Below, piece by piece: positions 39,711 to 55,234 of a DNA stretch of 55,234 nt (the stretch's first letter is position 1; the number at the start of each line of letters is the position of its first letter). This stretch comes from Nitrospirota bacterium (lineage in GTDB: Bacteria; Nitrospirota; Thermodesulfovibrionia; Thermodesulfovibrionales; Dissulfurispiraceae): the NCBI GenBank assembly GCA_040754455.1, contig JBFMCP010000021.1, positions 1 through 55,234 of the forward strand, read 5' to 3'. Under the pieces are notes generated by a model. It made no database searches. It was given only the letters and a program-made list of their open reading frames with translations, and was not told the DNA's origin. The position numbers were made by a program, and so were the translations under genes.

Positions 39711-40832
39711 ATGTCCGGGTATAAAATAACATGGATCACCGACAATCTGGCGACCGGCACTGCGCCTATCTCCTATGATGACCTTGAAGTGATACGGGAG
39801 CAGGGGATTGATGCCATCGTCAACTTATGTGCCGAATACTGTGACCTGCATGACATCCAAAGGGAAAGCGGCTTTGATGTGCTCTATTTTCCCATAGAAG
39901 ACGATTCTGCCCCCGGACTGGAAGAGATGGAAAGGGCGCTTGACTGGCTGGACGAGGCAATCTATCTGGGCAAGAGGGTCCTTGTACATTGCCGCCTGGG
40001 GCTCGGACGAACGGGAACATTTATTACCGCCTACCTCCTGAGGCGCGGATTCGGCATGAAGACGGCACAAAGGAGGTTGAAGCGGACCCGTCTTAACCCC
40101 TCGAGCTTTTATCAATGGAGACTGCTGAGGAAATATACGAAGCAATCAGGCGAGCTTACCATACGAGAACCTTCTATAGGAACAAAAAACATTGTCGACC
40201 TCAATCCCTTCTTTGCCGAATATGAGCAACTCGTTCAGGAGATCGAGACATTGATCCAGTCGCTTTCCCAAGCGGCCGCATCAGTACGGAGCAAGGTGCG
40301 GCGGTGCGGCGATGACACCGACGAGTGCTGCAGCCGGTTTCTTTATCTGCAGCTTATCGAAGCGGCATATCTCAATTACTATTTGAGCAAGCGGCTCAGC
40401 AGGGGTGATCGGCTTGCTGCTCGCAACAGGGCGCTGGTAATGAGCAAGGCATTTTGCGGCACCAAGGAGTGTCTGCCGGCCGATGATGCTATGATACACC
40501 AAGAGCACGCCCTCCTTCTGCCCGATAATCCTGGCGCGGTGAGCTATAGATGCCCCCTCAACGTCGATGCAAAATGCATTGCCTACCAGTATCGGCCTCT
40601 TACCTGCCGTATGTACGGTATCAGTGCTCAGGTGGAGTCTCGTCATGCTGATAGAGCACTCGCTCAAATAGACCCTGACCGGATCAATGAGCAACTCTCC
40701 GGCATTTCGGAAAGGCTCTTCTACGGTATGAGCTCTTTCTCTTTCAAGGACAAGAGTCTCCTCTTCCCCCTGACCCATGTGGTCTCCGGTAAATTTGTTC
40801 AGGATTACTTTACTTTCCTTTCAAAGGTTTAA
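39711..40832 (+). CDS. Dual-specificity phosphatase fused to a YkgJ/CxxCxxCC-type cysteine-cluster domain
   Basis: HCRLGLGRTG P-loop; C-terminal C.....CC, CPL.....C..Y..RPLTCR.YG. Confidence 0.85.
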   Translation: MSGYKITWITDNLATGTAPISYDDLEVIREQGIDAIVNLCAEYCDLHDIQRESGFDVLYFPIEDDSAPGLEEMERALDWLDEAIYLGKRVLVHCRLGLGRTGTFITAYLLRRGFGMKTAQRRLKRTRLNPSSFYQWRLLRKYTKQSGELTIREPSIGTKNIVDLNPFFAEYEQLVQEIETLIQSLSQAAASVRSKVRRCGDDTDECCSRFLYLQLIEAAYLNYYLSKRLSRGDRLAARNRALVMSKAFCGTKECLPADDAMIHQEHALLLPDNPGAVSYRCPLNVDAKCIAYQYRPLTCRMYGISAQVESRHADRALAQIDPDRINEQLSGISERLFYGMSSFSFKDKSLLFPLTHVVSGKFVQDYFTFLSKV

Positions 40833-40900
40833 CCCTGCATGAACATGCTCCAGTTGCATGTACCAAGATGTTTTTTTCCGGTACAAAGAAGGGCAGGATT

Positions 40901-40909
40901 TGGTATAAT
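40901..40909 (+). promoter_or_regulatory. Extended -10 promoter element
   Basis: TGgTATAAT upstream of the 41018 operon. Confidence 0.5.
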
Positions 40910-41017
40910 GTCCTACCTTGATGCGTAGTCGTGACATAATAATGAGGGGGACATTACATCTGTCATCCACGGGAACTATCGGGCTGCTTCTGCACCCGCT
41001 GCACGGGGTGAGGTGCC

Positions 41018-42697
41018 GTGCCCTTTAACGCCCTTCCCAAGAATTATTTTGTCGACCGGGAAGGCGAGCTTGCGTATCTCAAGCGGTTGGCCGATGCCGC
41101 TGAAAACACTATCGGAGGCAATATCCTTCTCGAAGGGGCACGGGGCATCGGCAAGACCGAGCTCCTCAAGCAGCTCTATCGCTCCTGCTTTTGGGGCGAA
41201 AAGAGTGCCATTCCTTTCTACTATTCCTTCCAGCGCGCCATGCTCAAGGGAACACACTTTGCCCGCGATTACTTCACGCGCTTCGTAAAGCAGTATCTCG
41301 CCTACCTCAAGAAAGACCCCTCGCTGATCGACAATATGAGCACTTCGCTCACCAGGCTCATGCCCCTGATCTCTTCTCTCAGGATCGAGTGGATGATCGA
41401 CCTGATCGAGGATTTCAATGAGCAGCTGCGGGAGGGGGACCTCTACGGGCAGATGCTCGGCGCCATTAACGCACCGGTCATCGCCGCAGGGAAGAACGGG
41501 CAGCCCGTCTTGGTCATGCTCGATGACTTCCCCTTGGCAGCCCAGCTTTACGAGGCGGCCCCGGGCGACGTGCCCGGGCTGATAAGCCTTTTCGAAGGGT
41601 CGCTGAAGACTTCCCTCTGTCCTCACATCGTGACCGGTTCGCCCGAGGGTCTGCTGGAATCAATCTTCTCCGATACCACCTTCAGAGGCAAGGTCGAGCG
41701 GATGTTCGTCAGGCCGCTCCATGAAGATGCGGCGTTTGCGCTCTTCCAGAACTACTGTACCATGCTGGGGGTCAGGGACTACCGGGAGGTATCCTTTAAA
41801 TTTATGAAATTCCTCGGAGGCAATCCCCTCTACATACGGAACATCGTCAGGTCGCTCTGGAAGATGCAGAAGAAGGATCTTACCGAGAGGGACCTGTGGG
41901 AGTGCTACAGCTACGAAGTGTCAGAGGGAGAGACTGCCTTCTACTGGTCTTCCATACTGGGAGAGTTTCTCAGGGATGTGGAGCAGCGGAGGACCGCAAT
42001 AGAGCTGCTTATGCACTCCATAAAATCGAACAGCGAATTTCACGATCTGGGCAGGCTCTCGAGGGTGCTCGGCATACCCGAACGCTCGCTGCGGCAGGCG
42101 CTCGAGTCGCTCCAGTCCGCCGGCATCGTGCAGGCGGGCATTGCCGTGAGAAAAACAAATGACAATGTCCTTCAGGACTTCATACAAAGCATGTATCTGA
42201 AAGAGGTCGAGGGAAGGGCAACGGAGCGGATACGGGAGCTGATCGAGACGAAATACCATGCCGAGAGCAGCACTGCTTCGACCTTTGAGATGGTCATCCC
42301 CATGGCTTCGGATGCGGAGCTGGTCGCCGCAAAGGCGGTCGAGCAGATCGGCAAAAATATCAATCTGAACCCCGATGTGACCAACCATCTCCAGCTGGCC
42401 CTCATCGAAGCGTGCATCAATGCCATGGAGCACAGCGGAAGCTACGAGAAGAAGGTCTTCCTCAAATTCACCGTCAGCCCCGAGGTGATCGAAATAGCGA
42501 TAGAGACGCCGGGCAAGTTCTTTGAGGCCGATATGGGCGAGGAGATGACGATCGAGGAGAAGCTCCACTCGGAGCATAAGAGAGGCTGGGGGCTCAAGCT
42601 GATGCGCAACATCATGGATGAAGTGAAGGTGGAACGCATCGGCGACATGACGCGCGTCGTGTTGATCAAGAAAATAAGACCCGATGAGGTGTTGTGA
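41018..42697 (+). CDS. P-loop ATPase (archaeal-ATPase/STAND-like) fused to an RsbW-type anti-sigma Ser kinase domain
   Basis: FVDREGEL, GARGIGKT, LVMLDDF, GGNP.Y; C-terminal LALIEACINAMEH...RGWGLKLMRNIMDEV. Confidence 0.85.
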   Translation: MPFNALPKNYFVDREGELAYLKRLADAAENTIGGNILLEGARGIGKTELLKQLYRSCFWGEKSAIPFYYSFQRAMLKGTHFARDYFTRFVKQYLAYLKKDPSLIDNMSTSLTRLMPLISSLRIEWMIDLIEDFNEQLREGDLYGQMLGAINAPVIAAGKNGQPVLVMLDDFPLAAQLYEAAPGDVPGLISLFEGSLKTSLCPHIVTGSPEGLLESIFSDTTFRGKVERMFVRPLHEDAAFALFQNYCTMLGVRDYREVSFKFMKFLGGNPLYIRNIVRSLWKMQKKDLTERDLWECYSYEVSEGETAFYWSSILGEFLRDVEQRRTAIELLMHSIKSNSEFHDLGRLSRVLGIPERSLRQALESLQSAGIVQAGIAVRKTNDNVLQDFIQSMYLKEVEGRATERIRELIETKYHAESSTASTFEMVIPMASDAELVAAKAVEQIGKNINLNPDVTNHLQLALIEACINAMEHSGSYEKKVFLKFTVSPEVIEIAIETPGKFFEADMGEEMTIEEKLHSEHKRGWGLKLMRNIMDEVKVERIGDMTRVVLIKKIRPDEVL

Positions 42698-43074
42698 TGA
42701 GGATGTCGAATTTCAATGTCGGTTCAAAAATCATGGACGATATGGCGGTCATCTATCCGAAAGGGTACCTGAACAACATCACCGGCGAGGACCTCGTCGA
42801 TGCATGTAATGGTTATATCGAAAAGGGTATAAAGAAGATCGTCCTGAATTTCGGTGAGACCGAGTTCATCAACAGTATCGGCATTTCGATGCTCCTGACG
42901 ATTATCGAACGGCTGAAGGAGTGCAAGGGGACGCTCTGCTTTACGGATATGAGCAAGATGTACCGCGAGACGTTCGAGATGCTCGGCCTGACCAAATTCA
43001 TCAAGATATTCGCTGATGAACACGAGGCGCTGACGCATTTGAGGAGTATCGGGAGCAATGAGCCTCGAACTTAA
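42694..43074 (+). CDS. STAS anti-sigma-factor antagonist
   Basis: KIVLNFGETEFINSIGIS (phospho-Ser position), FEMLGL. Confidence 0.88.
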   Translation: MMRMSNFNVGSKIMDDMAVIYPKGYLNNITGEDLVDACNGYIEKGIKKIVLNFGETEFINSIGISMLLTIIERLKECKGTLCFTDMSKMYRETFEMLGLTKFIKIFADEHEALTHLRSIGSNEPRT

Positions 43075-44281
43075 GCGGGCGCTGTACAATATTTCCTCGC
43101 TGGTCGACCTCGGACAGGAGGTCACCTCGGCAAAGAATTTCAACGTTCGCATCCAGTCGGTGCTGTACGCCATGATGGGAACGTTTCTCGCCAATAAGGG
43201 CGCCATCTTCGTTTTTGAGAAGGACACCAGGGCCCTCATTCCGATTGCAAAGAAGGGATTCCACAAGGCTGAAATCCCGATGCTGATCATCAATGTGGAG
43301 CATATGCTGCTCATCAAGAAGAATGAGCCTTTCACGCTCGGGAACGGGAAAAGCCCCGTCGGATTACACAATCTGAAGGAGGAGCTGCTCCAGTCGGGGG
43401 TCGAGATTTTTATTCCGCTATGGGTGAGGGACGAGTTCATCGGCGCCATTGCCCTCAGCAATAAATTCACTTCCGAGCCCTACGTCGCGGATGATTTCGA
43501 GCTCCTGAAGGTCATGGCCCACCAGATCGCCATTGCCCTCAGCAACCACGCGCTCTTCATCAATCTTTCCGAGCAGCTCGAAAAGAACCGGAAGCTCTAT
43601 GAAGAGATGCGGCGGATCTATCACGATACCATTCAGGCCTTTGCCGCGGCGATCGATGCAAAGGATGTCTATACGAAGAACCACTCTCAGCGCGTGGCCC
43701 GCTACGCCGTGGCAATCGCCCGTGAGCTCGGATGGAGCGAGTCCGAGATAGAGGGCATTTATATTGCCGGGTTTCTGCATGACGTCGGCAAGCTCGTGGT
43801 CAACAGCGAGGTGCTGAACAAGAGCGAACCGCTTACCAAGCAGGAGTGGCATGAGCTGAAGAGCCACCCGATGGTCTCCTATAAAATAAGCTCGAAAATC
43901 AAGTTCCCCTGGAAAGACGTGGTGAAAATGATCAAGCACCACCATGAACGGCTCGACGGCAACGGATATCCCGATGCGCTGACCGGTGAGGACCTGAGCG
44001 AAGGCGCAAAGATCCTGAGCCTTGCCGATTCTTTTGATGCCATGACCTCGGACCGGCCGTACAAGCCCCGGCTGGACCTCAAAGAGGCCCTCGAGGAGCT
44101 GAAGAAGTGTCTCGGCACACAGTTCGATCCGAAGATTGTGGCAGCCTTCTGCAAGGTGCTCGACAAGGAGATCAAGGGCGAGCTGCCCGAGCCGCATATC
44201 CTCCCCCACCTGGACGAGAATTTCGACCCCTCGATCATCACCGCAATGCTCGAAGCATTAATCGCTGAACTGTCGGAATAG
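43058..44281 (+). CDS. GAF + HD-GYP cyclic-dinucleotide phosphodiesterase
   Basis: AIDAKD.YTKNHSQRV, LHDVGK, HHERLDGNGYP, ADSFDAMTSDRPY. Confidence 0.92.
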   Translation: MSLELKRALYNISSLVDLGQEVTSAKNFNVRIQSVLYAMMGTFLANKGAIFVFEKDTRALIPIAKKGFHKAEIPMLIINVEHMLLIKKNEPFTLGNGKSPVGLHNLKEELLQSGVEIFIPLWVRDEFIGAIALSNKFTSEPYVADDFELLKVMAHQIAIALSNHALFINLSEQLEKNRKLYEEMRRIYHDTIQAFAAAIDAKDVYTKNHSQRVARYAVAIARELGWSESEIEGIYIAGFLHDVGKLVVNSEVLNKSEPLTKQEWHELKSHPMVSYKISSKIKFPWKDVVKMIKHHHERLDGNGYPDALTGEDLSEGAKILSLADSFDAMTSDRPYKPRLDLKEALEELKKCLGTQFDPKIVAAFCKVLDKEIKGELPEPHILPHLDENFDPSIITAMLEALIAELSE

Positions 44282-44375: not shown

Positions 44376-46226
44376 TTATACTAACGTTTCCTGTCCTTCT
44401 CGTGCTTTATAGCATCGATAGAGCACCGGAACCATTGAGACGAGGATAATCAGACCGAGGCCTATGATAAATTCGGGAGATATTCTCCCCCGCACCGCTT
44501 CAAGCAGGGAATTCGAAAAGACAATAAAGGCGATGCAGGCCGGAAGCATACCGATGAACGTTGCTGCCGCATAGTGGAAGAACTTGATCTTTGTAAGACC
44601 GAAGGCGTAATTGAGGAGATTGAAGGGGAAGAGAGGGATAAGCCGTGTGAAAGCCACGATCTTCCAGCCGTGTTTTTCAACTCCCACATCGAGTCGCCGC
44701 CATCGGGGGCTTCTCAATTTTCTTTCTATCCATTCCCTGGCGATGTAGCGTGATACGAGAAAGGCGACGCATGCGCCTATGGTGGAGCTGATGATGGTAT
44801 AGACGACACCCCGGAAAGGACCGAAAAGTATGCCGCCCACAATGGTAATGGGCAGTCCGGGCAGAAAGAGGGCGGGCGCGACTGCATAGAGCAGCATGTA
44901 TAGAATGGGCGCCAGGGCGCCGTAGCCCTGGATCGATGCTCGTAATGCATCCCGCTCAAGGTAGTGTATCGCGCCGCTGAATCTTACGGCCATTATCGCT
45001 GCGATAATCAGCAGGAGGAAGATGGCGCGCTTTATCGCCCCGCCTTTCTTCCGTTCCCTGTCGAAAACAAATGTCCTCTCCCGGATCACCGCTGCGGCAA
45101 CACTCTTTTTAAGCCTCCTTTTCAGCTTCAGCCGGTTCAGATAGGTGAACGGCGCTTTCGATACTTTGGCTTTTCCGGCGAACGTGGCCTCGGGCTCAAA
45201 GGCAACATCGAGTATATGCATGGTCGTCATGTGGGGATCGAGGGAATTTGCGCACCCTGCACAATACGTTATCACCTTCCGCTGCCCGGCCTCTTTCTTC
45301 CTCAGCGCACCCCAACGACGGGCAAGATCGGGAGAGAGGAATCCGACGCTTCCCCCTTCACCGCAGCAGAGAGCCTCTGTGCCGTGGTGTGGCATTTCCT
45401 CGATTGCCAATCCCTGCTTTGCAGCAAGCGTCCTGACCGCGGCATGAATGGAAGCATCGAACCTGACGGCGCAGGGATCGTGGATCGTAACGGTTGCGCT
45501 CACCTGCGCGCTTATAAGAGGGCTGTACTCCGCGAGGAATTCGTAGACGGTGGCAACGGCAATCTCTCCTCCGTACGTTTTGAAGACCTTATAGCAATTG
45601 GGACAGGCGACGAGGATATTCTTTATGCCGTGCTGCACGAGAAAATGCTTCATTTCATTGAACATGGCAAGGAAGTACTTCTGCCTGCCGAGATCGTGCG
45701 AGGGCTTGGTGCAGCAGTCGAGGACAATGCCGAGGGAGGGAATCTCCTCTCTCATGCGCTCATAGAGCTTCAATGTAGTTTCAGGCCGTGTAGCGGGCAG
45801 GGTGCAGCCCGGAAAGAAGATGGTGTCACAGCCCTCGGGCAGGGCATAGTAGGTGTATCGCTTTGATGTGCCCCGCTGCTCGTAGCCGAGAACGGGTGCA
45901 TGCTCGGGGTAGTCGCCGTACCCTCGGCTGACGGTTTCCCTGCGCATCTCCAGGAACAGTGCCGCGGGATTGATATCTGCCGGGCATACCGCCGCACATA
46001 ATCCGCAGAGACTGCACTCAAAAGGCATCGTCTGCTGGAGCGTTTCGCGGGGATTGTAAGCATCGGCGATGTCTTTGGGGGGACCATATTTTTTCAGGAA
46101 TGCACAATTTTTGACACACTTCTTGCATCCTGTGCACGTTTCTGAAATGATACGGAGCGCTTCAAGAAGCGCTCCGCTCATCTGGTTATCTTGTGTTTCC
46201 GTCTTTTGCGATTGCCCGATAGGCAT
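44376..46226 (-). CDS. Fe-S oxidoreductase (4Fe-4S dicluster + CCG domains) fused to a DedA/VTT membrane domain
   Basis: CTGCKKCVKNC, CSLCGLCAAVCP, FFPGC, DCC, ACPNC, HDPC, CCGEGG, TYC.GC; C-terminal GGILFG...RLIPLFPFNLLNYAFG. Confidence 0.88.
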   Translation of the reverse strand: MPIGQSQKTETQDNQMSGALLEALRIISETCTGCKKCVKNCAFLKKYGPPKDIADAYNPRETLQQTMPFECSLCGLCAAVCPADINPAALFLEMRRETVSRGYGDYPEHAPVLGYEQRGTSKRYTYYALPEGCDTIFFPGCTLPATRPETTLKLYERMREEIPSLGIVLDCCTKPSHDLGRQKYFLAMFNEMKHFLVQHGIKNILVACPNCYKVFKTYGGEIAVATVYEFLAEYSPLISAQVSATVTIHDPCAVRFDASIHAAVRTLAAKQGLAIEEMPHHGTEALCCGEGGSVGFLSPDLARRWGALRKKEAGQRKVITYCAGCANSLDPHMTTMHILDVAFEPEATFAGKAKVSKAPFTYLNRLKLKRRLKKSVAAAVIRERTFVFDRERKKGGAIKRAIFLLLIIAAIMAVRFSGAIHYLERDALRASIQGYGALAPILYMLLYAVAPALFLPGLPITIVGGILFGPFRGVVYTIISSTIGACVAFLVSRYIAREWIERKLRSPRWRRLDVGVEKHGWKIVAFTRLIPLFPFNLLNYAFGLTKIKFFHYAAATFIGMLPACIAFIVFSNSLLEAVRGRISPEFIIGLGLIILVSMVPVLYRCYKAREGQETLV

Positions 46227-46236
46227 CGGAAAATAC

Positions 46237-46659
46237 CTACTTCTCTCTTCCCTTTACGAACATCTCTTTGTAGGGCCACCCCGCAATACCCCCTTCGAGG
46301 ATGTAGAGCCTCTTCTCGGGAATTCCCTTTGACTTTATATACTCATAGGAATTGCTGGCGCCGCTTTTGCCTCTGGGGCATACAACGACCACATCGTCCT
46401 GCGTGGCTCTTATTTTCTCTACAGCCTTGTCGAGCTTCTTCTTCTCCTCTTCTGATTTTGCAGGAAAGGCATTGGTTTCTATGGAATCCTTGAAGTGATG
46501 TTCTTTGAAGTCGTCTGCCAGCTGGATATCAACAATGATGACGGGCCTCTTGGTTTCCATCCACTGCCTGAAGACATCAGGCTTTAAGTAATTGGCAGCA
46601 AAAGCCGAAGAGGTCAATACGAAAACTAACGTTGCAACCATTACGGCATACTTTTTCAT
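46237..46659 (-). CDS. Exported single-domain rhodanese
   Basis: Signal peptide (SAFA), VVCPRGKSGA active loop, ILEGGIAGW. Confidence 0.85.
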   Translation of the reverse strand: MKKYAVMVATLVFVLTSSAFAANYLKPDVFRQWMETKRPVIIVDIQLADDFKEHHFKDSIETNAFPAKSEEEKKKLDKAVEKIRATQDDVVVVCPRGKSGASNSYEYIKSKGIPEKRLYILEGGIAGWPYKEMFVKGREK

Positions 46660-46699: not shown

Positions 46700-47329
46700 T
46701 TAACCGATCCAGACGGTTCTCTTGAAGTCTTTTATTCCCTCGACGATATGGTTTGTCGTGCCGCGATAGCCGACCTTTAATTCTTTTTCGAGATCGTAGT
46801 GCTTGAGGCAGGTGCCGCAAGTGAATATCTCGACACCCATCTTTTCGATCTCTTTCAGAATGGGAATGATCTCCTCATTGGTTGTGGTGAGCTTTACCGC
46901 AGCATTAAGGAAAAATATGGTGTGGGGAATTTCCTTGGTAACCCTCATGGTATCGAAGAATCCCTTCATAAGTATCCTGCCCAGATCTTCCTCTTTGCCC
47001 ATGGTATCCGAGCCGATGATGAGCAGCACATCTTTTTCGGGCTCTGCATATCCGGCAGGTTGCGCAGCGGGCGCGGCCTCTGCTGCACCGGTACCCCCCT
47101 CGACAGGCACTTCACAGGGGTACCCTTTCACGATCTTTATTTTCCAGTAGCCGTTTTCAGGTATCGACTCTGCATAGAAACCGCTCTTCATGGCGAACCT
47201 CGTGACATTCTTTACCGACGCCTCATTATCAATGAGGATATCGACAATGCCTTCGTCTATCTTTGCCAAAGCTTCCTCTGCCATAATGACCGGCTTTGGA
47301 CAGCCGAGACCTCGTGCGTCGACAAGCAT
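46700..47329 (-). CDS. yedF: Selenium-metabolism sulfurtransferase-like protein YedF (TusA + DsrE domains)
   Basis: VDARGLGCPKPV, LGRILMKGF, FFLN..VKLT, CGTCL. GGGAGG precedes ATG 47329. Confidence 0.88.
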   Translation of the reverse strand: MLVDARGLGCPKPVIMAEEALAKIDEGIVDILIDNEASVKNVTRFAMKSGFYAESIPENGYWKIKIVKGYPCEVPVEGGTGAAEAAPAAQPAGYAEPEKDVLLIIGSDTMGKEEDLGRILMKGFFDTMRVTKEIPHTIFFLNAAVKLTTTNEEIIPILKEIEKMGVEIFTCGTCLKHYDLEKELKVGYRGTTNHIVEGIKDFKRTVWIG

Positions 47330-47432
47330 AAGAACCTCCCTTTTGTACACATCTGCGTTTTAAAAAACAGAAAATGCTATGAATGAAATATGACCTAGCT
47401 AAAAGATAACTCTTCGAAATCAGCGTTATCCA

Positions 47433-47511: not shown

Positions 47512-48294
47512 CTACTTAAAAAGATCGGCCCATATTTTTACGGCAGTGCTGATGATGATCAAAGCGAGCAGCCGGTTCAGGTATTGCACCTTTGTTCTCT
47601 TGCCCACAAAGCTGCCTAATCGTGCAGCCGGCACAGCTCCGAGGAGGAGAGCGGCAGCCATATGAGAAGGTACCTGGCCAGTGGCGACCTTTCCTACCAG
47701 GCCCGCCGAAGAGGAGAAGAGTCCGACCGCGAGCGTGCTGCCGAGGGCTACCCTGAGGGGAATTTTCAGCACATACAGGAAAATGGGTATGATGATAAAG
47801 GCGCCTCCCTGGCCGACGAGGCCGGTCAGAAAGCCGATAGCAACACCGATAAAGACCGCAGTCGGTTTATGAAAGTGAACCGCCTCTGCTGTCTGCTCAT
47901 CTCTGGAATAACTGCGCGGCATGAGCATCATCACAGCGGCGGCGAGGGCGAGCATCCCGAAAATGAACAGTAGCACTCTATCCGGCACCAGCTTTGAGAG
48001 GAAGGATCCGGTGAGTGACGAGAGAAACAATGAAAGCCCGAAGGTGAGGACAAGAGATTTATTAACAAGACTGTGCTTTTGATAATAGAGCATGGCGGTG
48101 AAGGCAGCGAAGAATCCCTGGACCATGGTTAGTCCTGTAATGCTTTTCACCCCTATCGGGTCGAAGCCGAGGAGCGGCGGCACATAGAGGAGGAGCGGGA
48201 ACATGAGAATGCCTCCGCCTATCCCCAAGAGCCCGGAGAGAAAGCCGACTGTCGAGCCGACGATCAAGAGGAATACATAGAAAGCAGCCGGCAT
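47512..48294 (-). CDS. TauE/SafE (TSUP) family sulfite/oxyanion transporter
   Basis: GFLSGLLGIGGG and GFLTGLVGQGGA repeats; 8 TM helices; coupled to the selD stop (TAATG). Confidence 0.9.
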   Translation of the reverse strand: MPAAFYVFLLIVGSTVGFLSGLLGIGGGILMFPLLLYVPPLLGFDPIGVKSITGLTMVQGFFAAFTAMLYYQKHSLVNKSLVLTFGLSLFLSSLTGSFLSKLVPDRVLLFIFGMLALAAAVMMLMPRSYSRDEQTAEAVHFHKPTAVFIGVAIGFLTGLVGQGGAFIIIPIFLYVLKIPLRVALGSTLAVGLFSSSAGLVGKVATGQVPSHMAAALLLGAVPAARLGSFVGKRTKVQYLNRLLALIIISTAVKIWADLFK

Positions 48295-49340
48295 TACTCC
48301 TCTACAAATATATGTATATTGTCTTTTGTTTCCCCATCAAGGACATCGCCTATATGGGCCGCCAGGATCCCCTCTTTTTGCAAGGCTGTGACAAGCGCTT
48401 CTTTCTTTTGCCGGGGGACAAAGATGAGCAGGCCTCCTGACGTTTGCGCATCATTTATGAGGGCCTGTACGAACCCCGGGATACCCGACGCCCATTTGAC
48501 ATAGGGTGCATAGATTCCTAGATTGCCGAGTGTGCCTCCGGGGATGACATCCTGCTCGGCGAGCCTCAAGGCATCGCTGAAAAACGGTATCCTGCTCGCA
48601 TGGAGTCTGGCCCTGCATTTGCTCGCAGAGAGCACTTCGTTCAGGTGGCCTATCAGTCCGAAGCCGGTGATATCCGTTGCGGTACTTACCCCCACTTCGA
48701 GCATGACTTCGCTTGCCCTCTTGTTTAAGGTCGCCATCGATGCGGTGAACTCTTCTATGGCCGCGTCGCTGCACATCCCGGCCTTAACTCCGGTAGAGAC
48801 AATGCCGGTTCCGATCTTCTTGGTGAGGATAAGGGCATCCCCGGGGCGGGCTTTTGTGTTATCGAGAATCCGGTCGGGATGGATGAGTCCCATGACCGTG
48901 TAGCCGAACTTCGGCTCCTTGTCTCTGATGGTATGTCCGCCGATAATCGAGACTCCTGCCTCGGTCATTTTATCGATGCCACCCTGCATGATTTTTTTCA
49001 GGGAGGGGAAGAACTCGGGCTGGCTTGGAAGCATCGCAATGTTGAGAGCGACGACCGCACGCCCTCCCATGGCCCATACATCCGACAATGAATTGGCGGC
49101 GGAAATTGCACCGTACCAGTACGGATCATCAACAATCGGCGTGAAAAAGTCGGTAGTGAGCACCACAGCGGTGTCATCATTAATGCGATAGACACCGGCG
49201 TCATCGGCATTTGCCGAGCCGACCAGTATATTCTTGTCAGTGAGAGCAGGCAACTGCCCCAGCACGTGGGACAGGTCCGAAGGACTAAACTTCGCCGCTC
49301 AACCGGCGCAGCTCGAAAGCTCCGTCAATTTGATATCCAT
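48294..49340 (-). CDS. selD: Selenophosphate synthetase, selenocysteine-containing (UGA at codon 14, 49299-49301)
   Basis: GGAGG-ATG 49340 gives MDIKLTELSSCAG-UGA-AAKFSPSDLSHVLGQLP, in frame with DDAGVY, TDFFTPIVDDP, ANSLSDV.AMGG, GGHT, TDITGFGL.GHL, DAQTSGGLL. Confidence 0.95.
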
Positions 49341-49354
49341 CGTCCCCTCCTTTG

Positions 49355-49696
49355 TTAGCGTCTTCTTTCGCCCGGGTATTTCCCCTTTTTCGTCACCGGA
49401 CAGCATGCCGGCGCAGGCAGCTCATCCAGATAGTCTTTCTTAAGCACCTCGATGATGTCGGGAATTATAGGGTCCTTGAGGAAATAACACCTGAGCCTTC
49501 CATCGATGTAATAGTCGATAATTCCGTACCTGCGTAACAGTGAAAGATGCTGTGATATATTGGGCTGGCTGATTTCGAGAAACTCTTCGAAGTCGCTGAC
49601 GCATTTCACCCCTTTCGCCAGCTCTTCAAGAATGCTTATGCGGGCAGGGTGGGCGATAATCTTCAGGAGCTCAATTTTTCTCCCCATGGAACGCAT
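49355..49696 (-). CDS. ArsR/SmtB-family transcriptional regulator
   Basis: LKIIAHPARISIL, KCVSD, SQPNISQHLSLLR..G; C-terminal PACCP. Confidence 0.9.
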   Translation of the reverse strand: MRSMGRKIELLKIIAHPARISILEELAKGVKCVSDFEEFLEISQPNISQHLSLLRRYGIIDYYIDGRLRCYFLKDPIIPDIIEVLKKDYLDELPAPACCPVTKKGKYPGERRR

Positions 49697-49975: not shown

Positions 49976-50734
49976 TTACCTCTCCACCGGCATCTTCGCT
50001 TCATTCCATTCTGCGAAGAGCGTTTGATAAATCTGCTTGTAATCCATTTTGACGAGTTTCCGGTATGCTATATAACTGCGGCTACCGGTATTGCAGTAGA
50101 CGATGATCTTTTTCTCTTTGGGAAGTATGTCCTGCGCAGAAGCAAAACGATCTGCAGGAATGTTGACAGCACCGGGAATATGCCCTTCCTTGTATTCCGA
50201 AGCATCCCTGACATCGACAAGAACGTAATCGCCTTTGTTTTGATCGATCAACTTTTTGATATCGGCCGGTTTCAGCTTGGTGGTCTCGATCTTTTTGCCG
50301 TATTCCGGTCCGGCAACGATTGGCAGATTCTTTTCTTCCCAGACCGGGAATCCATCATTGTAGATGGTGATATTCGTATAGCCGATCGCTTCTGCTTTCT
50401 TCGCTGTCCGCTTACTCTTTCCGCACTTCACCCCGTTGCAGTAAAAAACCAGATGTGCATTTTTATCGGCGGGAAGCAGCGAGGTCAGGCTTTCGAAGCT
50501 CTTTTCGGGTATGTTGATTGAGGTGATGATATGTGCTTCCTGGTATTCCTCTTTGGTCCTCGCATCGATAAGCATGAATGCCTTCTTTTCGTCGATCATT
50601 GCTTTGAGTTGCTCTGAGGTGATGGTTTGATAGGTGCTCTCAGCAGCAAAAGACGACCCGATCATGACAAAAATCAAAGACACCAGCGATACTGCTAAAA
50701 GGCCACTTTGAAGCCTGCTCATACGTTTACACAT
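49976..50734 (-). CDS. Exported tandem-domain rhodanese
   Basis: Signal peptide; two domains, each with an active-loop Cys (FYCNGVKCGKS, VYCNTGSRS); DAR..EEY...HI and DVR...EY..GHIPGA. Confidence 0.88.
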   Translation of the reverse strand: MCKRMSRLQSGLLAVSLVSLIFVMIGSSFAAESTYQTITSEQLKAMIDEKKAFMLIDARTKEEYQEAHIITSINIPEKSFESLTSLLPADKNAHLVFYCNGVKCGKSKRTAKKAEAIGYTNITIYNDGFPVWEEKNLPIVAGPEYGKKIETTKLKPADIKKLIDQNKGDYVLVDVRDASEYKEGHIPGAVNIPADRFASAQDILPKEKKIIVYCNTGSRSYIAYRKLVKMDYKQIYQTLFAEWNEAKMPVER

Positions 50735-50742
50735 AGATCCTC

Positions 50743-51435
50743 CTACTTTTTTAATCGATATATCAGTATCACAGGATACCTCTCTTGATCGGGAAGCACA
50801 TCAGCTCTTCCCTGGAAGTGAGAATTCGGTGAAACGAAACGCTTCATTGTTCCTATTGATGGATAGTTCGCATTGCTGGTGATGCCGACCCAGCAGCTTT
50901 CGAGACAGGTGACACAGCCGGTATTTTCTTTTGCAGCAGCAGCCTTATTGCCTCCGAATTTGATCCTGAAACCCTTGCCTGCAGCATCGGATATGAGGTC
51001 GCTCAGCGGCAGTTCCTTATTGAGTCCCGGCCAGGTAGCAGTTACAATGAGTTCGTCACCCTCGACACGTTCGCCGTTGCTCTCCTTGGAGAGATTATCG
51101 CCGGGATTAGCGCCGATCTCGATCAGGGCATTATGGAAGACGAGGTGGTTTGCATAGGTGATGAGTATTGCTTTATCAGCGAACTTTCCATCCTTGGAAA
51201 TAACACCAAAGTGTGTAGTCGGCTTGTGGAGATGCTTTGCATTGAACTCGGCGTAGATCATTACCTGCTTATTCGTCCGATCGATAATAAGAGGGTTTTT
51301 TTTGGTGGGAAGCGGTTCATGAGCATGGAGGCTCAGAGATAGACCGGTAACGGCAAGAGCGAACAGGATTACTAGGAATATGATGAATCCAGAGGCACTG
51401 CTCCTCTTATCGTTACCGAATAGCATGTGACTCAT
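50743..51435 (-). CDS. YdjY-family exported protein
   Basis: Signal/TM segment, T.HFGV...G....KA, IGA.PGDNL, FGGN......NTGCVTCLESC.VGITSN. Confidence 0.7.
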   Translation of the reverse strand: MSHMLFGNDKRSSASGFIIFLVILFALAVTGLSLSLHAHEPLPTKKNPLIIDRTNKQVMIYAEFNAKHLHKPTTHFGVISKDGKFADKAILITYANHLVFHNALIEIGANPGDNLSKESNGERVEGDELIVTATWPGLNKELPLSDLISDAAGKGFRIKFGGNKAAAAKENTGCVTCLESCWVGITSNANYPSIGTMKRFVSPNSHFQGRADVLPDQERYPVILIYRLKK

Positions 51436-51977
51436 AACTCCTTGAACGTTATCTTATAACCAAGATTGAATCCGAACAGGTCCTCGTTCAGCGCCTTCCC
51501 GTCAGCTTCTGCGTAGGGATACATGAAGTAGTTAAGTTTGTCGCCCCTTTGCGCCGGAGCGAGTATCAGATCTCTCCCTGTCTGATAGGCTACCCTGCTT
51601 TCGTCGAGGCCTCCGAAGTAGTACTCGACAAGGTCTTTTTTGAGCGTCTCTTTCCGCTTTACTTTTATTGTGTACGTCAGCGACCGCTCTTTAGCAGGTG
51701 CATTCCATTCGGCGTACAAAGCCATGTTGCCGTTTTCACCTTCTCTGTAGACGCTGCTGCCGGAAAAGTTGCCGGTGACTTTGACATCCTCGACAGTCTG
51801 GTTCTCGTCCGAGACGGGGTAGGGGACCCAGAGTCGCACCTCTTTTGCATCAGCCGGCGCATTCAGGTTGAATTGAATGGTGACCTCGCCTGTCCGCTCT
51901 TTCGCAATCGAAATGTCGGGAATGGTGACTGCAATTACTACTAATACTGCCAAATACAAAAGTCTCATGCTGCGCAT
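51432..51977 (-). CDS. Exported transglutaminase-family-like protein lacking the central catalytic core (possible in-frame deletion)
   Basis: N-terminal VRLWVPYP.SD..Q domain is joined directly to C-terminal EYYFG..D..RV....GRDLIL.P.Q....LNYF.YPYAE.DG; the protein contains no Cys. Confidence 0.6.
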   Translation of the reverse strand: MRSMRLLYLAVLVVIAVTIPDISIAKERTGEVTIQFNLNAPADAKEVRLWVPYPVSDENQTVEDVKVTGNFSGSSVYREGENGNMALYAEWNAPAKERSLTYTIKVKRKETLKKDLVEYYFGGLDESRVAYQTGRDLILAPAQRGDKLNYFMYPYAEADGKALNEDLFGFNLGYKITFKEL

Positions 51978-51995: not shown

Positions 51996-52754
51996 TTATA
52001 CAATGTCTTCTATCAGTGACGAGCCATACAGGGCAGCGCCGATTGCACCTACAGCATCAGGCTGTGGCGGCACGAGCACGCGAATGCCGAGCTTCTCCTG
52101 CAGCAATGCAACGATGCAGAGATTCTTCGCCACCCCTCCCGAAAAAACGATTGCGTCATCATACCCGACACGATGCAGCATACCGGTAAGACGATCGATT
52201 ACTGAGTGATGCACTGCTCTTGCAATATCCCGAACGTCAGTCCCATGATTCTTCAGCGATATGACCTCTGACTCCGCAAATACGGTGCACATGCTGTTGA
52301 TCTTGAATTCGCCTTCTGCCTTGAGTGCTTCTGCGCCGAATTCGGAGAGTGAGAATCCCAGGCTTGAGGCCATAATCTCGAGAAACCTGCCGGTTCCGGC
52401 GGCGCACTTATCATTCATCTGAAAGTTGAGGAGCTTACCGTTTTCATCGAGTGAGATCACTTTCGAATCCTGTCCGCCTACATCAAGTACGGTCCGGCAA
52501 TCGGGAAAGAAATACCGTGCGCCGAGGGCATGTGCCTTGATCTCGGTAATAACCTCTTGTGCGAAATGCTTCTGAGCGAGATGGCGTCCGTACCCGGTTG
52601 CCACGATCTTTTTCGGATGGTACTTTTTGATCATTTCGAGCGACTGACGATGGGGATCGAATCCGCTTTCGGCAATCTGACAGTCCTGCAGCCGCCCTTC
52701 TTCAAGGGCGGCTGCCTTTATGGTACGTGAGCCTAAATCAATACCGACAATCAT
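51996..52754 (-). CDS. ATP-dependent [4Fe-4S] activator (HgdC/BadF-type ASKHA ATPase; DCCP reductase-like)
   Basis: GIDLGSRTIK, ATGYGR, DVGGQDSK, MNDKCAAGTGRFLE, CTVFAESEVIS, GGVA.N. Confidence 0.92.
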   Translation of the reverse strand: MIVGIDLGSRTIKAAALEEGRLQDCQIAESGFDPHRQSLEMIKKYHPKKIVATGYGRHLAQKHFAQEVITEIKAHALGARYFFPDCRTVLDVGGQDSKVISLDENGKLLNFQMNDKCAAGTGRFLEIMASSLGFSLSEFGAEALKAEGEFKINSMCTVFAESEVISLKNHGTDVRDIARAVHHSVIDRLTGMLHRVGYDDAIVFSGGVAKNLCIVALLQEKLGIRVLVPPQPDAVGAIGAALYGSSLIEDIV

Positions 52755-52755
52755 G

Positions 52756-54051
52756 CTATCCTTTTATCTGCTCCAGGAATGCCTCGATCCTGGTCTGGAG
52801 CTGGCCGATATCTTCCGGCGAGTAGTCGGATTCGATGGCAATGAATGGAATGCCTTCCTTCTCGCACATCTCCTTCAGCTTGATGGCTTCAATGTTATAG
52901 GTATGACAGAACTGGAGGCAGTAGTGGACAATGCCCTGTGCCCCAGACTCCTTGTACTCCTTGAATACCTGGTCGATCCTATCGTCATTTGGGGTAAAAC
53001 AAGAGCAGTCTATTTTCATGTAGCGCTCGGTCAGGGCTTCGATCTGTTTATCGAGATCGTTTGCATTTTCATCCATAAGATCTTTGTAATACCGTGTGCC
53101 GATGCAGCTCTCGTCATTGACAACAATACCGCCGGCGTTTTCGACGATGTTGTGAATTTTCCAGTTGGGCATTGCCATCGGCGTACCTGAGACCAGCACG
53201 CGGGGAGCCTTTGCCGGAGCGACAGATATTCCTTTTTTGATCCGTACGTCAAGCTCGTCACAGAGAACATTGACCTTTTCAGCGAACCGTACAGGATTAT
53301 CATAGAACGCGATCTGCTCGATGAGGAGTACATCCTTGCCGCTGATGGGCGAGGGAGTGTGATGCTGGAGCTTGTTCAGCCGCTGCAGCGCCCTGCGCTT
53401 ATTGTTCATTATTTTTATCGCTTCTGAAACAGCCTCTGCGGTAATCGCCTTGCCGGTGACCTTTTCCATCTGAGCTTTGAAATCTTTTACTTCTTCGAGC
53501 CACAATGTCTTATCCCTTTTCCGTTTCATCTGGGGAATTTCCATCACATAGGTCGGCACTTCCCGGTCAAGAAGCTCCCAGGTCTTCTTTTTCGCATCGC
53601 AGGTGGTTTCGCCGTAGACGAAGTCGACCGACTGGAAATAGGGGCAGACCTTTGCGACCTTGAAGCCGTAGGCTGACTTCACCATGGGGCAGATGTTTCT
53701 CGGCAGCACCTTTTCCGCATCGGGAATAGGGCCGGGCGAGCCGCCACAGAGACCGAGGCAGATGCCGCCGGCAGCGATGACGAGCTCTTCAGGAACATAA
53801 ACGCAGAAGGTGCCTACAACAGGGCTTCCCGCTTTTTTCGCATCGAGTATCTCCTTTATACGGCCGCCGTGGATCTCGGAGATGATCCAGTCGAAGTAGT
53901 CCATGGCCTTCGGCCGGTTGTTCTGAAAGAGAAAGGCTTTCTGATACACATCGCCCAGCACGCAGCGCATCTTTTCAAAGCGCTCTACATCCATACCGAG
54001 CTCTTCCCACATGTCCTTATACTGTTTGATTTCGAATGCCGCAGCTTCCAT
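52756..54051 (-). CDS. 2-hydroxyacyl-CoA dehydratase-family protein, double-cubane-cluster (DCCP) type
   Basis: GTFCVYVPEE, GLCGG, NICPMVKS, ETTCDAKKK, DESCIG, DCSCF, YCLQFCHTY, ESDYS...QLQTRIEAF. Single subunit next to its activator. GGAGGA precedes ATG 54051. Confidence 0.8.
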   Translation of the reverse strand: MEAAAFEIKQYKDMWEELGMDVERFEKMRCVLGDVYQKAFLFQNNRPKAMDYFDWIISEIHGGRIKEILDAKKAGSPVVGTFCVYVPEELVIAAGGICLGLCGGSPGPIPDAEKVLPRNICPMVKSAYGFKVAKVCPYFQSVDFVYGETTCDAKKKTWELLDREVPTYVMEIPQMKRKRDKTLWLEEVKDFKAQMEKVTGKAITAEAVSEAIKIMNNKRRALQRLNKLQHHTPSPISGKDVLLIEQIAFYDNPVRFAEKVNVLCDELDVRIKKGISVAPAKAPRVLVSGTPMAMPNWKIHNIVENAGGIVVNDESCIGTRYYKDLMDENANDLDKQIEALTERYMKIDCSCFTPNDDRIDQVFKEYKESGAQGIVHYCLQFCHTYNIEAIKLKEMCEKEGIPFIAIESDYSPEDIGQLQTRIEAFLEQIKG

Positions 54052-54140
54052 ATATCCTCCTCGAATAAGTACAACGTGCACAACAGCTTGACTGTTGCCG
54101 CTGTTCTATAACGATAGCTGCAGAAAAACAGACATTTCCA

Positions 54141-54194: not shown

Positions 54195-54289
54195 TGGAGA
54201 GGGATAGTGCGAATCGAACGCACCACAGCCTCATTAGGGCTGTATCGCTGGTTTTGCAGACCAGGCGGGGCACCAGCCCCCTATCCCTC
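54195..54289 (-). tRNA. Non-canonical tRNA-Cys(GCA) with tRNA-Sec-like fold (selC*-like)
   Basis: 95 nt: GAGGGATA/TATCCCTC 8-bp acceptor, GGGGC-TGGT-GCCCC D-arm, CTGGT-CTGCAAA-ACCAG anticodon arm (GCA at 54257-54255), 7-bp variable stem, GTGCG-TTCGATT-CGCAC T-arm, U73, encoded CCA. Confidence 0.92.
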
Positions 54290-54304
54290 AGGAATGATTA
54301 AACC

Positions 54305-54341
54305 ATAGAAAATTGAGATGAGTAAAATAGATAATTACTAT
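54305..54341 (-). promoter_or_regulatory. LysR-type boxes upstream of the tRNA
   Basis: ATAG-N7-CTAT (54327-54341) and ATAG-N7-AGAT (54305-54319); TGgTTTAAT lies 7 nt before the tRNA 5' end. Confidence 0.55.
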
Positions 54342-54355
54342 AAAAGGACCGGGAC

Positions 54356-55234
54356 TTATAGATGTGCTTTGATATGCTCTAAAAAGATATTGTATGTGAG
54401 AGGCAGCGTTCTTTTCTTGTGAGTGACAAGATAAAATTTCCTCTTCATCCGGATATCGGAGACCTTGATCTCTTTCAAGGTCTTAAACTTAAGCTCGTCG
54501 GCAACTGAGAGTTTCGAAAGGATGGAGATACCCAGTCCTTCCTTTACCGCCTGCTTCACCGCATCGGTCGAGCCGAATATCCCGGCGATCTTGAGAGCAT
54601 CGATTGAGATATGCTTATCTTCGAGAATTCGTTCCACTTCCTTACGGGTGCCTGATCCCTCTTCCCTGAAGATGACGGGATAGGTGATGAGCTCGTGCAG
54701 GGGCATAGAGTTTTCTTTAATGAGTGCAGGAAAGGAGACGACAATGAGCTCATCCTCTGTGAGCGGAGTGAAGGTGAGATGTCCGTTGCTCAGTTTCGAA
54801 CCGACGACACCGATGAGCAGGTCGTGCTTCAGCACTTTATCGATGATCTCTTTCGAATCGGCAATGATGATCTTGAAAGCGACGGCAGGATACCGCTTCT
54901 TGAACTCCGCGATGATCCTGGGCATGAGGTACGTCCCGGGAATGGTGCTCGCCCCGACCACCAGATCGCCCGAAATCTCTTTTTTGAATTGGCTGAAGGT
55001 ATCTTTCAGTGTGCTTATTTTCTCAATGATGCCTATGGCATGGTTATAGAGGACCTCAGCCTCTTTCGTAGGGATGATGGTTCTTCCCAGGCGGTCGAAA
55101 AGCTTGCAGTCGAGCTCTTCCTCGAGGGTCTTGATATGGTCGCTTACTGTCGGCTGGGTGAGATAGAGCTCCTCCGAGGCCTTTGAAAAGCTCCTGTTCT
55201 TGTACACTGATACGAACACTCTGAGCTGGTGGAT
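54356..55234 (-). CDS. LysR-family regulator (selenium-metabolism-associated type); N-terminus cut by the window edge
   Basis: IHQLRVF.SV....SFSKASEELYLTQPTVSDHIKTLE, GASTIPGTY.MP, REEGSGTR, GSTDAVKQAV. Confidence 0.9.
   Translation of the reverse strand: MHQLRVFVSVYKNRSFSKASEELYLTQPTVSDHIKTLEEELDCKLFDRLGRTIIPTKEAEVLYNHAIGIIEKISTLKDTFSQFKKEISGDLVVGASTIPGTYLMPRIIAEFKKRYPAVAFKIIIADSKEIIDKVLKHDLLIGVVGSKLSNGHLTFTPLTEDELIVVSFPALIKENSMPLHELITYPVIFREEGSGTRKEVERILEDKHISIDALKIAGIFGSTDAVKQAVKEGLGISILSKLSVADELKFKTLKEIKVSDIRMKRKFYLVTHKKRTLPLTYNIFLEHIKAHL

Follow-up and report, generated by a model that had tools for sequence, protein, structure and literature searches.

Transfer RNAs (tRNAs) that look like selenocysteine (Sec) tRNAs while bearing the identity marks of cysteine (Cys) form a family already described in 2017-2018. 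Mukai et al. (2017) defined these selC* tRNA-Cys genes as tRNA-Sec-like tRNAs with U73 and either a GCA or a UCA anticodon, and reported them from anaerobes of the Firmicutes, Thermodesulfobacteria, Nitrospirae and Proteobacteria, with an arrangement that differs per phylum or class (PMC5389517). The later name for the selC* tRNA-Cys group is tRNAReC. The tRNAReC of Desulfotomaculum nigrificans is reportedly the subject of a 2018 paper by Vargas-Rodriguez in RNA Biology. In this study, we analyze a 95-nt tRNA gene at 54195..54289 on the minus strand (read from 54289 to 54195) of a 55,234-nt stretch of a Nitrospirota bacterium (assembly GCA_040754455.1, contig JBFMCP010000021.1); "the window" denotes this whole stretch. 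The gene almost certainly belongs to the selC*/tRNAReC family, the kinship to which the first-pass annotation had pointed with reference to Mukai and colleagues: the Sec-shaped body and the cysteine marks both bear out this kinship (PMC5389517). The sequence itself is new.

The function of the family has been approached with several of its members. A selC* tRNA of the (8/4) type (acceptor and T stem of 8 and 4 bp) with a UCA anticodon inserts cysteine at the UGA codon of D. tiedjei selD in E. coli (PMC5389517). According to a 2024 JBC review, the GCA form of D. nigrificans decodes UGA as cysteine via SelB and does not interact with EF-Tu (PMC11415595), and a 2026 paper states that both anticodon types recode UGA when a selenocysteine insertion sequence (SECIS) lies downstream (PMC13582414). 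Like the window tRNA, the D. nigrificans tRNAReC is Sec-shaped with a GCA anticodon, and charging by cysteinyl-tRNA synthetase (CysRS), carriage by SelB and insertion of cysteine at UGA have been reported for it (PMC11415595, PMC13582414); its host, however, belongs to another phylum than the window organism. The (8/4) selC* tRNA-Cys(UCA) genes of Desulfobacterales/Syntrophobacterales, found with selB* and cysS*, are members of the same family with a presumed SelB-type factor. They combine a bulged A with a T stem of 4 bp, often carry UCA and A1:U72, and occur in hosts with a dedicated CysRS devoid of an anticodon-binding domain (PMC5389517). The window tRNA differs from them in its G1:C72 pair, its GCA anticodon and its T stem of 5 unbulged pairs; both selB and cysS are absent from the window.

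A tRNA-Sec-type body with cysteine identity marks

The 8-bp acceptor stem of the window tRNA is followed by a single linker base, a D arm with a 5-bp stem and a 4-nt UGGU loop, an anticodon arm with five contiguous pairs and a 7-nt loop containing GCA, a variable arm of about 19 nt with a 6-bp stem, and a T arm with a 5-bp stem and a 7-nt loop; the 3' end consists of the discriminator U73 and an encoded CCA. Acceptor and T stem together form a helix of 13 bp (8 + 5 contiguous pairs). A sixth anticodon-stem pair would require a bulged base, and its partner varies among the relatives, as read off the MAFFT alignment. ARAGORN reports a single tRNA in the window, this one, as tRNA-Cys with anticodon gca. 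An Rfam cmscan of the entire window likewise returns a single match above threshold, but to tRNA-Sec (RF01852; 58.1 bits at a gathering threshold of 47, with an E value of 3e-9 and a match over the whole length of the model, 1-91). The single-strand fold amounts to -46.2 kcal/mol (z -4.18), a value equalled in none of 200 shuffles. The window tRNA is a tRNA-Sec-type body that carries tRNA-Cys identity marks.

The first-pass annotation had proposed a complete 95-nt cloverleaf with an encoded CCA, 8/5 stems, a 4-nt UGGU D loop, a long variable arm, GCA and U73. ARAGORN, the Rfam tRNA-Sec match and the fold confirm the cloverleaf, and all of the listed elements can be read in the sequence and its fold. 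The tRNA was also called hidden, which is true for the track of open reading frames (ORFs) only, since standard tRNA finders detect it directly. Its location on the minus strand was absent from that description.

A comparison with described tRNAs defines the combination more sharply. E. coli K-12 selC (NC_000913.3, 3836222-3836316), taken from the annotated record, folded and aligned, shares with the window tRNA the length of 95 nt, the 8/5 stems, the 4-nt D loop, the long variable arm and the CCA. It carries, in contrast, UCA and G73; its linker of 2 nt leads into a D stem of 6 bp, and its anticodon stem likewise counts 6 bp. In the window tRNA, with GCA and U73, a linker of 1 nt precedes a D stem of 5 bp, and the anticodon stem has five contiguous pairs. 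The segment between acceptor stem and D loop therefore measures 6 nt instead of the 8 nt of E. coli tRNA-Sec, as had been correctly noted at first pass, and the difference appears in the alignment with K-12 selC as a 2-column gap. Canonical tRNA-Cys has a 7/5 helix and a short variable loop, whereas the window tRNA has an 8/5 helix and its variable arm of about 19 nt; from allo-tRNAs (8/4 or 9/3, 12 bp) it is distinguished by the 13-bp acceptor/T helix.

With a Sec-type body that exceeds the Rfam tRNA-Sec threshold, one may also consider a Sec tRNA with a sense anticodon. Charged by seryl-tRNA synthetase (SerRS) and converted to Sec-tRNA by SelA, it would insert Sec at a subset of UGC/UGU codons, a behaviour reported for the tRNA-Sec(GCA) of Aeromonas salmonicida. 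The long variable arm is an element used by SerRS (PMC5389517), and a natural tRNA-Sec with a GCA anticodon is mentioned in the JBC review (PMC11415595). The discriminator, however, is U73 instead of G73, and U73 together with GCA are the main CysRS identity elements (PMC5389517). The D arm is shorter than that of E. coli selC (5 bp + 1 nt versus 6 bp + 2 nt), and the published tests on family members gave cysteine and not Sec (PMC5389517, PMC11415595). We regard this alternative as very unlikely; Sec at UGY codons, one of the roles offered at first pass, finds no support here.

Conservation of the fold among relatives

Relatives were collected by scanning genome contigs with a pattern that extends from the anticodon loop over the T loop to U73 and CCA and prescribes GCA, U73 and CCA. 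The scan gave at least 120 loci (L numbers), and all counts of relatives given here refer to these listed, pattern-selected loci. ARAGORN calls a tRNA-Cys(gca) of at least 85 nt in 66 of the 120 listed loci. A covariance model, R1, built from the Nitrospirota-type set with the window included in the seed alignment, scores at least 54.7 bits at the pattern site in 70 of the 120 (103.9 bits in the window), while the remaining 50 contain nothing above 33.7 bits. The ordinary 76-nt tRNA-Cys of L008 obtains only 34.9 bits with this model, and L101, with a 96-nt ARAGORN call and only 29.9 bits, was left out. The 70 loci hold 67 distinct tRNA sequences, none of which is identical to the window tRNA. 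The closest among those listed are the sequences of L114 and L024, each 84% identical. The nearest listed relatives are Nitrospirota/Thermodesulfovibrionales assemblies, and the neighbouring proteins agree, with the reductase 82% identical in L039 and the LysR regulator 71% identical in L070 (tblastn). On the same contig as its 84% identical tRNA, L024 has a second selC*-like sequence (6176-6326, minus strand; 151 nt, 57.2 bits with R1) in which about 60 nt are inserted into the loop of the variable arm, the T stem is imperfect and CCA is not encoded; it may represent an atypical variant or a copy that has been disrupted.

The published "selC-like tRNAsCys" sheet of Mukai et al. (2017) contains the closest described relatives. 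Its Nitrospirae/Thermodesulfovibrio selC* entries share the design of GCA, U73, encoded CCA, 4-nt D loop and long variable arm, and its Thermodesulfovibrio and metagenome entries have 8/5 stems when read by eye. The anticodon-arm letters of the window tRNA are, by eye, those of the T. yellowstonii/islandicus entries and of the last two metagenome entries, whereas the G-C-rich variant of the T stem and the letters of the variable arm set it apart from the listed Nitrospirae entries (PMC5389517). L114 has, again by eye, the same letters as one metagenome entry of that table.

Pair counts were taken from a model-made alignment, A3, which comprises the window and 32 Nitrospirota-type loci (33 of 71 sources) realigned to the model, with 33 of 33 matched. 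Of two other alignments, the MAFFT alignment A1, in which 5' ends are wrongly placed wherever the linker has 2 nt, served only as seed for R1, and A2 (79 matches) remained unused for counts as it contains tRNA-Ser, tRNA-Phe, ordinary tRNA-Cys and the 151-nt oddity. Standard pairs occupy 96.3% of the 957 cells of A3, compared to 85.3% in shuffles; changes on both sides occur in 20 of the 29 pairs (11.3 in shuffles) and the covariation score is 0.415 (0.190 in shuffles). Five measures were evaluated, none of which was reached by any of 500 shuffles. Sliding the 3' partners by one to three columns lowers pairing to 50-60%. The acceptor helix is paired in 98.9% of cases, with both-side changes in seven of its eight pairs, and the variable-arm helix has such changes in six out of six. 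All 33 sequences have GC as the outermost pair of the T stem, which is therefore uninformative either way. The window tRNA is intact and under strong structural selection.

These counts bear on whether the gene might be a decaying copy of selC, or a tRNA-Sec with UCA and G73 that was misassembled, a view with the likeness to tRNA-Sec as its sole argument. No stem is broken in the window copy, and with 96.3% of the cells paired and 20 of 29 pairs compensated, a decaying selC devoid of compensatory pairing, as envisaged at first pass, is not what the alignment contains. Moreover, the same design recurs in at least 70 loci from independent assemblies, although the search pattern itself required GCA and U73. 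Decay or misassembly is scarcely credible.

The helix architecture was also compared over 68 sequences (the window and 67 listed ones). The T-stem count gives 40 unbulged 8/5, 12 bulged 8/4 and 16 intermediate forms, and the unbulged 8/5 form is present in 33 of the 35 Nitrospirota-type sequences of the listed sample; in the clostridial listed members, unlike in the window, the 5-bp T stem is mostly bulged or interrupted. Two other readings of the acceptor/T helix were rejected. Against a 9/4 or 7/5 reading, position 9 is able to pair with the last T-stem base in only 6 of the 68 sequences, and the eighth acceptor pair covaries (AU in 31 and GC in 2 sequences of A3). The first-pass annotation had suspected that an unbulged 13-bp form is a distinct variant in a family of mostly 12-bp 8/4 members. 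With 40 of 68 listed sequences unbulged, the 13-bp form is common and not special, and the 8/5 entries of the published sheet, among them the one matching L114, contradict the suspicion as well. In addition, the bulged 8/4 form is ascribed to "certain delta-proteobacteria" only (PMC5389517).

A selenium island around the tRNA

The tRNA was placed at first pass at the head of a selenium/sulfur island, and Pfam and NCBIfam assignments bear this out: a LysR_Se regulator lies upstream and selenium and sulfur genes follow downstream on the strand of the tRNA. All genes of the island are on the minus strand. The regulator, a LysR-type protein of selenium metabolism cut by the window end, spans 54356..55234 (NF040786, 305.2 bits with a cutoff of 250; Pfam HTH_1 and LysR_substrate). 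Directly downstream of the tRNA, 52756..54081 encodes a double-cubane-cluster anaerobic reductase of the HgdB/BcrC-like type (NF040772, 493.1 bits with a cutoff of 350; Pfam HGD-D), whose true start is likely the ATG at 54051 behind a GGAGG, which would place it 143 nt after the tRNA. Its partner, an ATP-dependent activase of the BcrAD/BadFG family, follows at 51996..52754 (TIGR00241, 244.4 bits; Pfam PF01869). The next gene (51432..51977) encodes a 181-aa protein with a signal-like start and no Pfam or NCBIfam match, of which tblastn finds homologues (43-67% identity) directly downstream of the tRNA in L001 and L020. A YdjY-domain protein (50743..51435; NF040466, 107.7 bits) and a double rhodanese-domain protein (49976..50734; two Pfam Rhodanese stretches) complete this part; the latter has partial matches to NCBIfam families of selenoprotein-type rhodaneses, under their cutoffs.

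Further downstream are an ArsR/SmtB-type regulator (49355..49696; Pfam HTH_5, NF033788), the selenophosphate synthetase SelD (48294..49340), a TauE/SafE-family membrane protein (47512..48294; Pfam PF01925), the selenium-metabolism sulfurtransferase-like protein YedF (46700..47350; TIGR03527, 191.4 bits with a cutoff of 110) and a single-domain rhodanese with a signal-like N-terminus (46237..46659; Pfam Rhodanese). The last gene of the row, 44376..46226, encodes a ferredoxin/CCG-domain protein fused to a VTT (DedA-like) membrane domain (Pfam Fer4 families, CCG, VTT_dom). It matches NF045663, a family named for its proximity to selenocysteine genes, partially and below cutoff; homologues with 57-66% identity over most of the length occur near the tRNA in L031, L033, L035, L037 and L049, and L021 has a match of only 29% identity (tblastn). 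The island is adjoined on the plus strand (39711-44281) by genes for dual-specificity phosphatase-like, ATPase/HATPase_c_2, STAS-domain and GAF-HD proteins, a set that resembles a module for partner switching or signalling and seems to have no relation to the tRNA.

Within the island, selD deserves separate attention. An in-frame TGA (49299-49301), located at the catalytic Sec/Cys position, truncates the ORF call of this gene (TIGR00476, 320.8 bits, with the match beginning at model position 32). When translation starts at the ATG at 49340 and TGA is taken as U, residue 14 of the protein is U, and in the alignment it falls on the catalytic Cys present in the solved SelD chains 2yye/2zod and 3u0o. 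A UGA at this site implies that the organism decodes Sec and that the predicted selD product is a selenoprotein. In the three listed relatives whose near-tRNA SelD alignment covers the site, the codon is TGA too (3 of 3). A hairpin starts about 13 nt after the selD UGA in the window and in three homologues, which lends weak support to a SECIS.

The association between tRNA and selenium genes extends well beyond the window. For the 49 loci whose flank extends to 1 kb or more (48 listed relatives and the window), ORFs lying up to 5 kb from the tRNA were clustered, and the representatives of the clusters were named with NCBIfam. At least 34 of these 49, across several phyla, have at least one selenium-linked gene within this distance. 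The double-cubane reductase occurs in at least 12, YedF and the activase in at least 11 each, LysR_Se and SelB in at least 10 each, the double rhodanese in at least five, and YdjY and SelD in at least three each; these counts are lower bounds, since tblastn adds missed genes such as the LysR gene in L009 and the reductase in L039. As a control, the island proteins were searched by tblastn in the 50 listed non-tRNA loci and match only one of them, with LysR at 22% identity.

This linkage, together with the fold, also bears on a plainer interpretation, in which an odd-shaped extra tRNA-Cys isoacceptor would work with EF-Tu at ordinary UGC/UGU codons and owe its selenium link to gene position only. 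GCA, U73 and the ARAGORN call of tRNA-Cys are what such an isoacceptor would have. Yet compensatory changes preserve the 13-bp helix and the Sec-type arms, a sign that the Sec-type shape is under selection. For the D. nigrificans homologue, the JBC review states that there is no interaction with EF-Tu (PMC11415595), and the selenium genes accompany the tRNA in at least 34 of 49 loci of several phyla. We consider this interpretation unlikely.

Gene order is partly conserved as well. The succession tRNA-reductase-activase on one strand is found in the Nitrospirota-type loci L009, L039, L049 and L074, and also in the Bacillota loci L015/L016 (a Desulfosporosinus assembly) and in Carboxydothermus islandicus (L030), whereas in L018, L051 and L076 the tRNA stands directly behind the reductase/activase genes. 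A selB gene comes after the tRNA in at least 10 of the 49 loci. Among these are the Nitrospirota-type loci L007, L028 and L035, in which a selB-type gene directly follows the tRNA, an arrangement described in 2017 for delta-proteobacteria (PMC5389517). Parts of the association are known from the protein side. Among the top neighbours of LysR_Se and YedF given by Lin et al. (2015) are 2-hydroxyglutaryl-CoA-dehydratase-like subunits and activases (PMC5322559), and according to Haft (2022) SelD-containing assemblies are the source of 955 of 970 high-scoring double-cubane proteins (bioRxiv 10.1101/2022.07.06.499078).

An intimate relation between the tRNA and its neighbours might suggest a non-translational role, in which the (Cys-)tRNA is a substrate or carrier for the adjacent enzymes, such as the double-cubane reductase, the rhodaneses, SelD and YedF, or acts as a cis-regulatory leader of the operon. 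In the window, and in at least L009, L015/L016, L030, L039, L049 and L074, the tRNA immediately precedes the reductase and activase genes of its own strand; in three other loci it stands directly behind them. A terminator scan found no terminator between the tRNA and the reductase gene of the window. The neighbour varies, however, with YedF in at least 11 loci or SelB in at least 10 instead, so that a shared regulon fits better than one enzyme-substrate pair. In addition, the association of reductase, LysR_Se and SelD is described in tables and passages that make no mention of a selC* tRNA (PMC5322559, bioRxiv 10.1101/2022.07.06.499078), and the intact anticodon loop, T loop and CCA resemble those of a working translational tRNA. 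A non-translational role, also among the suggestions made at first pass, receives no support here and is highly improbable. A chemical variant holds that the cross-phylum placement beside reductase/activase, SelD, YedF and rhodaneses reflects chemistry: Cys-tRNA(ReC) would itself be an enzyme substrate, for example for an on-tRNA exchange of sulfur for selenium that yields Sec-tRNA without SelA for delivery by SelB. This is a far-fetched speculation to which we give very little credence.

The upstream box and a proposed back-up role for the tRNA

The 75 nt 5' of the tRNA have a common block structure in many of the listed loci, and an alignment of 18 upstream regions displays invariant columns within each block. 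The first block is an interrupted dyad, CTATA-N14-TATAG, with about 14 nt between the arms. The second is a ATCTATTT box overlapping a -35-like hexamer (TTGAC/TTTAC), and the third consists of a further CTAT followed by an A/T-rich -10-like hexamer that ends about 8 nt before the tRNA. Interrupted dyads of the CTATA-N14-TATAG kind are typical LysR sites. In the window, the region 54290..54361 (minus strand) is a putative LysR-type operator and promoter, as judged from the 18-region alignment and the box positions, with the dyad and box at 54326-54361. By eye, a weak -35/-10 pair is discernible upstream of the tRNA, which we claim only through the alignment across loci.

The spacing of these elements is nearly fixed. 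WTCTATTT occurs within 80 nt upstream on the strand of the tRNA in at least 12 loci and ends 34-35 nt upstream in 11 of them; dyad and box occur together in at least 11 loci including the window, ending 35-36 nt upstream of the tRNA in 10. Elsewhere in the listed loci the combination is found 17 times in 1.31 Mb on both strands, and 12 of these 17 matches are within 300 nt of a member tRNA, several of them facing a divergent reductase operon (L007, L031, L037). In L036, L050, L068, L069 and L104 the conserved upstream stretch is a different one, with (by eye) a TGA two bases before the 5' end of the tRNA, as though the LysR_Se gene abutted the tRNA, so that the tRNA may be co-transcribed with the LysR gene; in L036, L068 and L069 the dyad and box lie about 135 nt further upstream. 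Within the window, no second convincing box site was found before arsR-selD or yedF, and a looser box with two mismatches matches 30 times versus 23.2 expected. Taken with the neighbouring regulator, the conserved box suggests an LysR_Se operator with a promoter common to the tRNA and selenium operons. Two features may be new, namely the LysR-type box at its fixed distance and the wide linkage to the double-cubane reductase, YedF, LysR_Se and SelB: no link of tRNAReC to a LysR regulator or to double-cubane proteins was found in the literature searched, although the 2018 paper and the 2017 supplementary figures may show such loci.

A precedent for regulation of this type is HrsM, the archaeal LysR_Se orthologue of Methanococcus, which switches between Sec and Cys isoenzymes with the selenium supply. 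There, as here, an LysR_Se-type regulator is found beside Sec-related genes, and a cysteine back-up tRNA under such control would obey a similar logic; the HrsM switch, however, acts on protein-coding isogenes, whereas the regulated product proposed here, on the conserved box alone, would be a tRNA (PMC5322559).

We propose that the window tRNA is a selC*/tRNAReC cysteine tRNA delivered by SelB and controlled by LysR_Se, serving as a back-up for Sec-tRNA, and consider this explanation as a whole probable. By analogy with family members for which charging, SelB delivery and Cys insertion have been shown in E. coli, CysRS would charge the tRNA with cysteine through U73 and GCA, and the 13-bp acceptor/T helix would steer the Cys-tRNA to SelB and not to EF-Tu. 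SelB, bound to a SECIS hairpin, would bring it to an in-frame UGA, where cysteine would replace selenocysteine. Of the roles considered at first pass, that of a Cys-tRNA using a SelB-type factor agrees with the literature on the family (PMC11415595, PMC13582414). A likely target codon of the window tRNA is the UGA of selD, 5 kb downstream.

The regulatory part would run as follows. An LysR_Se-controlled promoter would drive the tRNA, probably jointly with the reductase operon. When selenium is short and Sec-tRNA is lacking, LysR_Se would switch on the tRNA and the selenium-handling genes, and Cys-tRNA(ReC) on SelB would complete UGA/SECIS genes as Cys forms. SelD would be the first among them, because Sec-tRNA cannot be made without it, and selenophosphate synthesis could restart once selenium returns. 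That the tRNA is the first product of an LysR_Se-controlled selenium-starvation operon is a tentative proposal, to which we assign slightly less than an even chance.

Several points weigh against the proposed explanation. Alignment A3 is fitted to the structure of the model, so its pair counts lean toward that structure; nevertheless, the slid controls and double changes argue strongly for the cloverleaf. The conservation of GCA, U73 and CCA is not judgeable from the sample, as the search pattern demands them. By ORF clustering, 15 of the 49 loci are without a nearby selenium gene, and within the window there is no selA, selB, canonical selC, cysS or ordinary tRNA-Cys. Judged on the window alone, the box pattern lacks significance (at least one match in 30 of 100 shuffles), and a sigma-70 scan of the minus strand near the tRNA gave no promoter and no terminator. 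The SECIS-like fold after the selD UGA is no better than in shuffles (z -1.30). Finally, GCA mismatches the third position of UGA, and the decoding of UGA by the GCA form is known from secondary reports.

Taken alone, the window tRNA is one further well-preserved member of the family of 2017-2018 and alters the picture little. The island and the probable LysR_Se-type operator, on the other hand, offer a testable idea of why cells keep a Cys-inserting look-alike of tRNA-Sec. If true, the back-up tRNA would break a deadlock, namely that a SelD which is itself a selenoprotein becomes unmakeable once Sec-tRNA is exhausted. The gene context and the common upstream box also tie the double-cubane reductases, which have no known natural substrate, to the selenium regulon. 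For annotation, a caution follows: where a genome carries a selC* tRNA, a UGA taken for Sec may, depending on conditions, stand for Cys.

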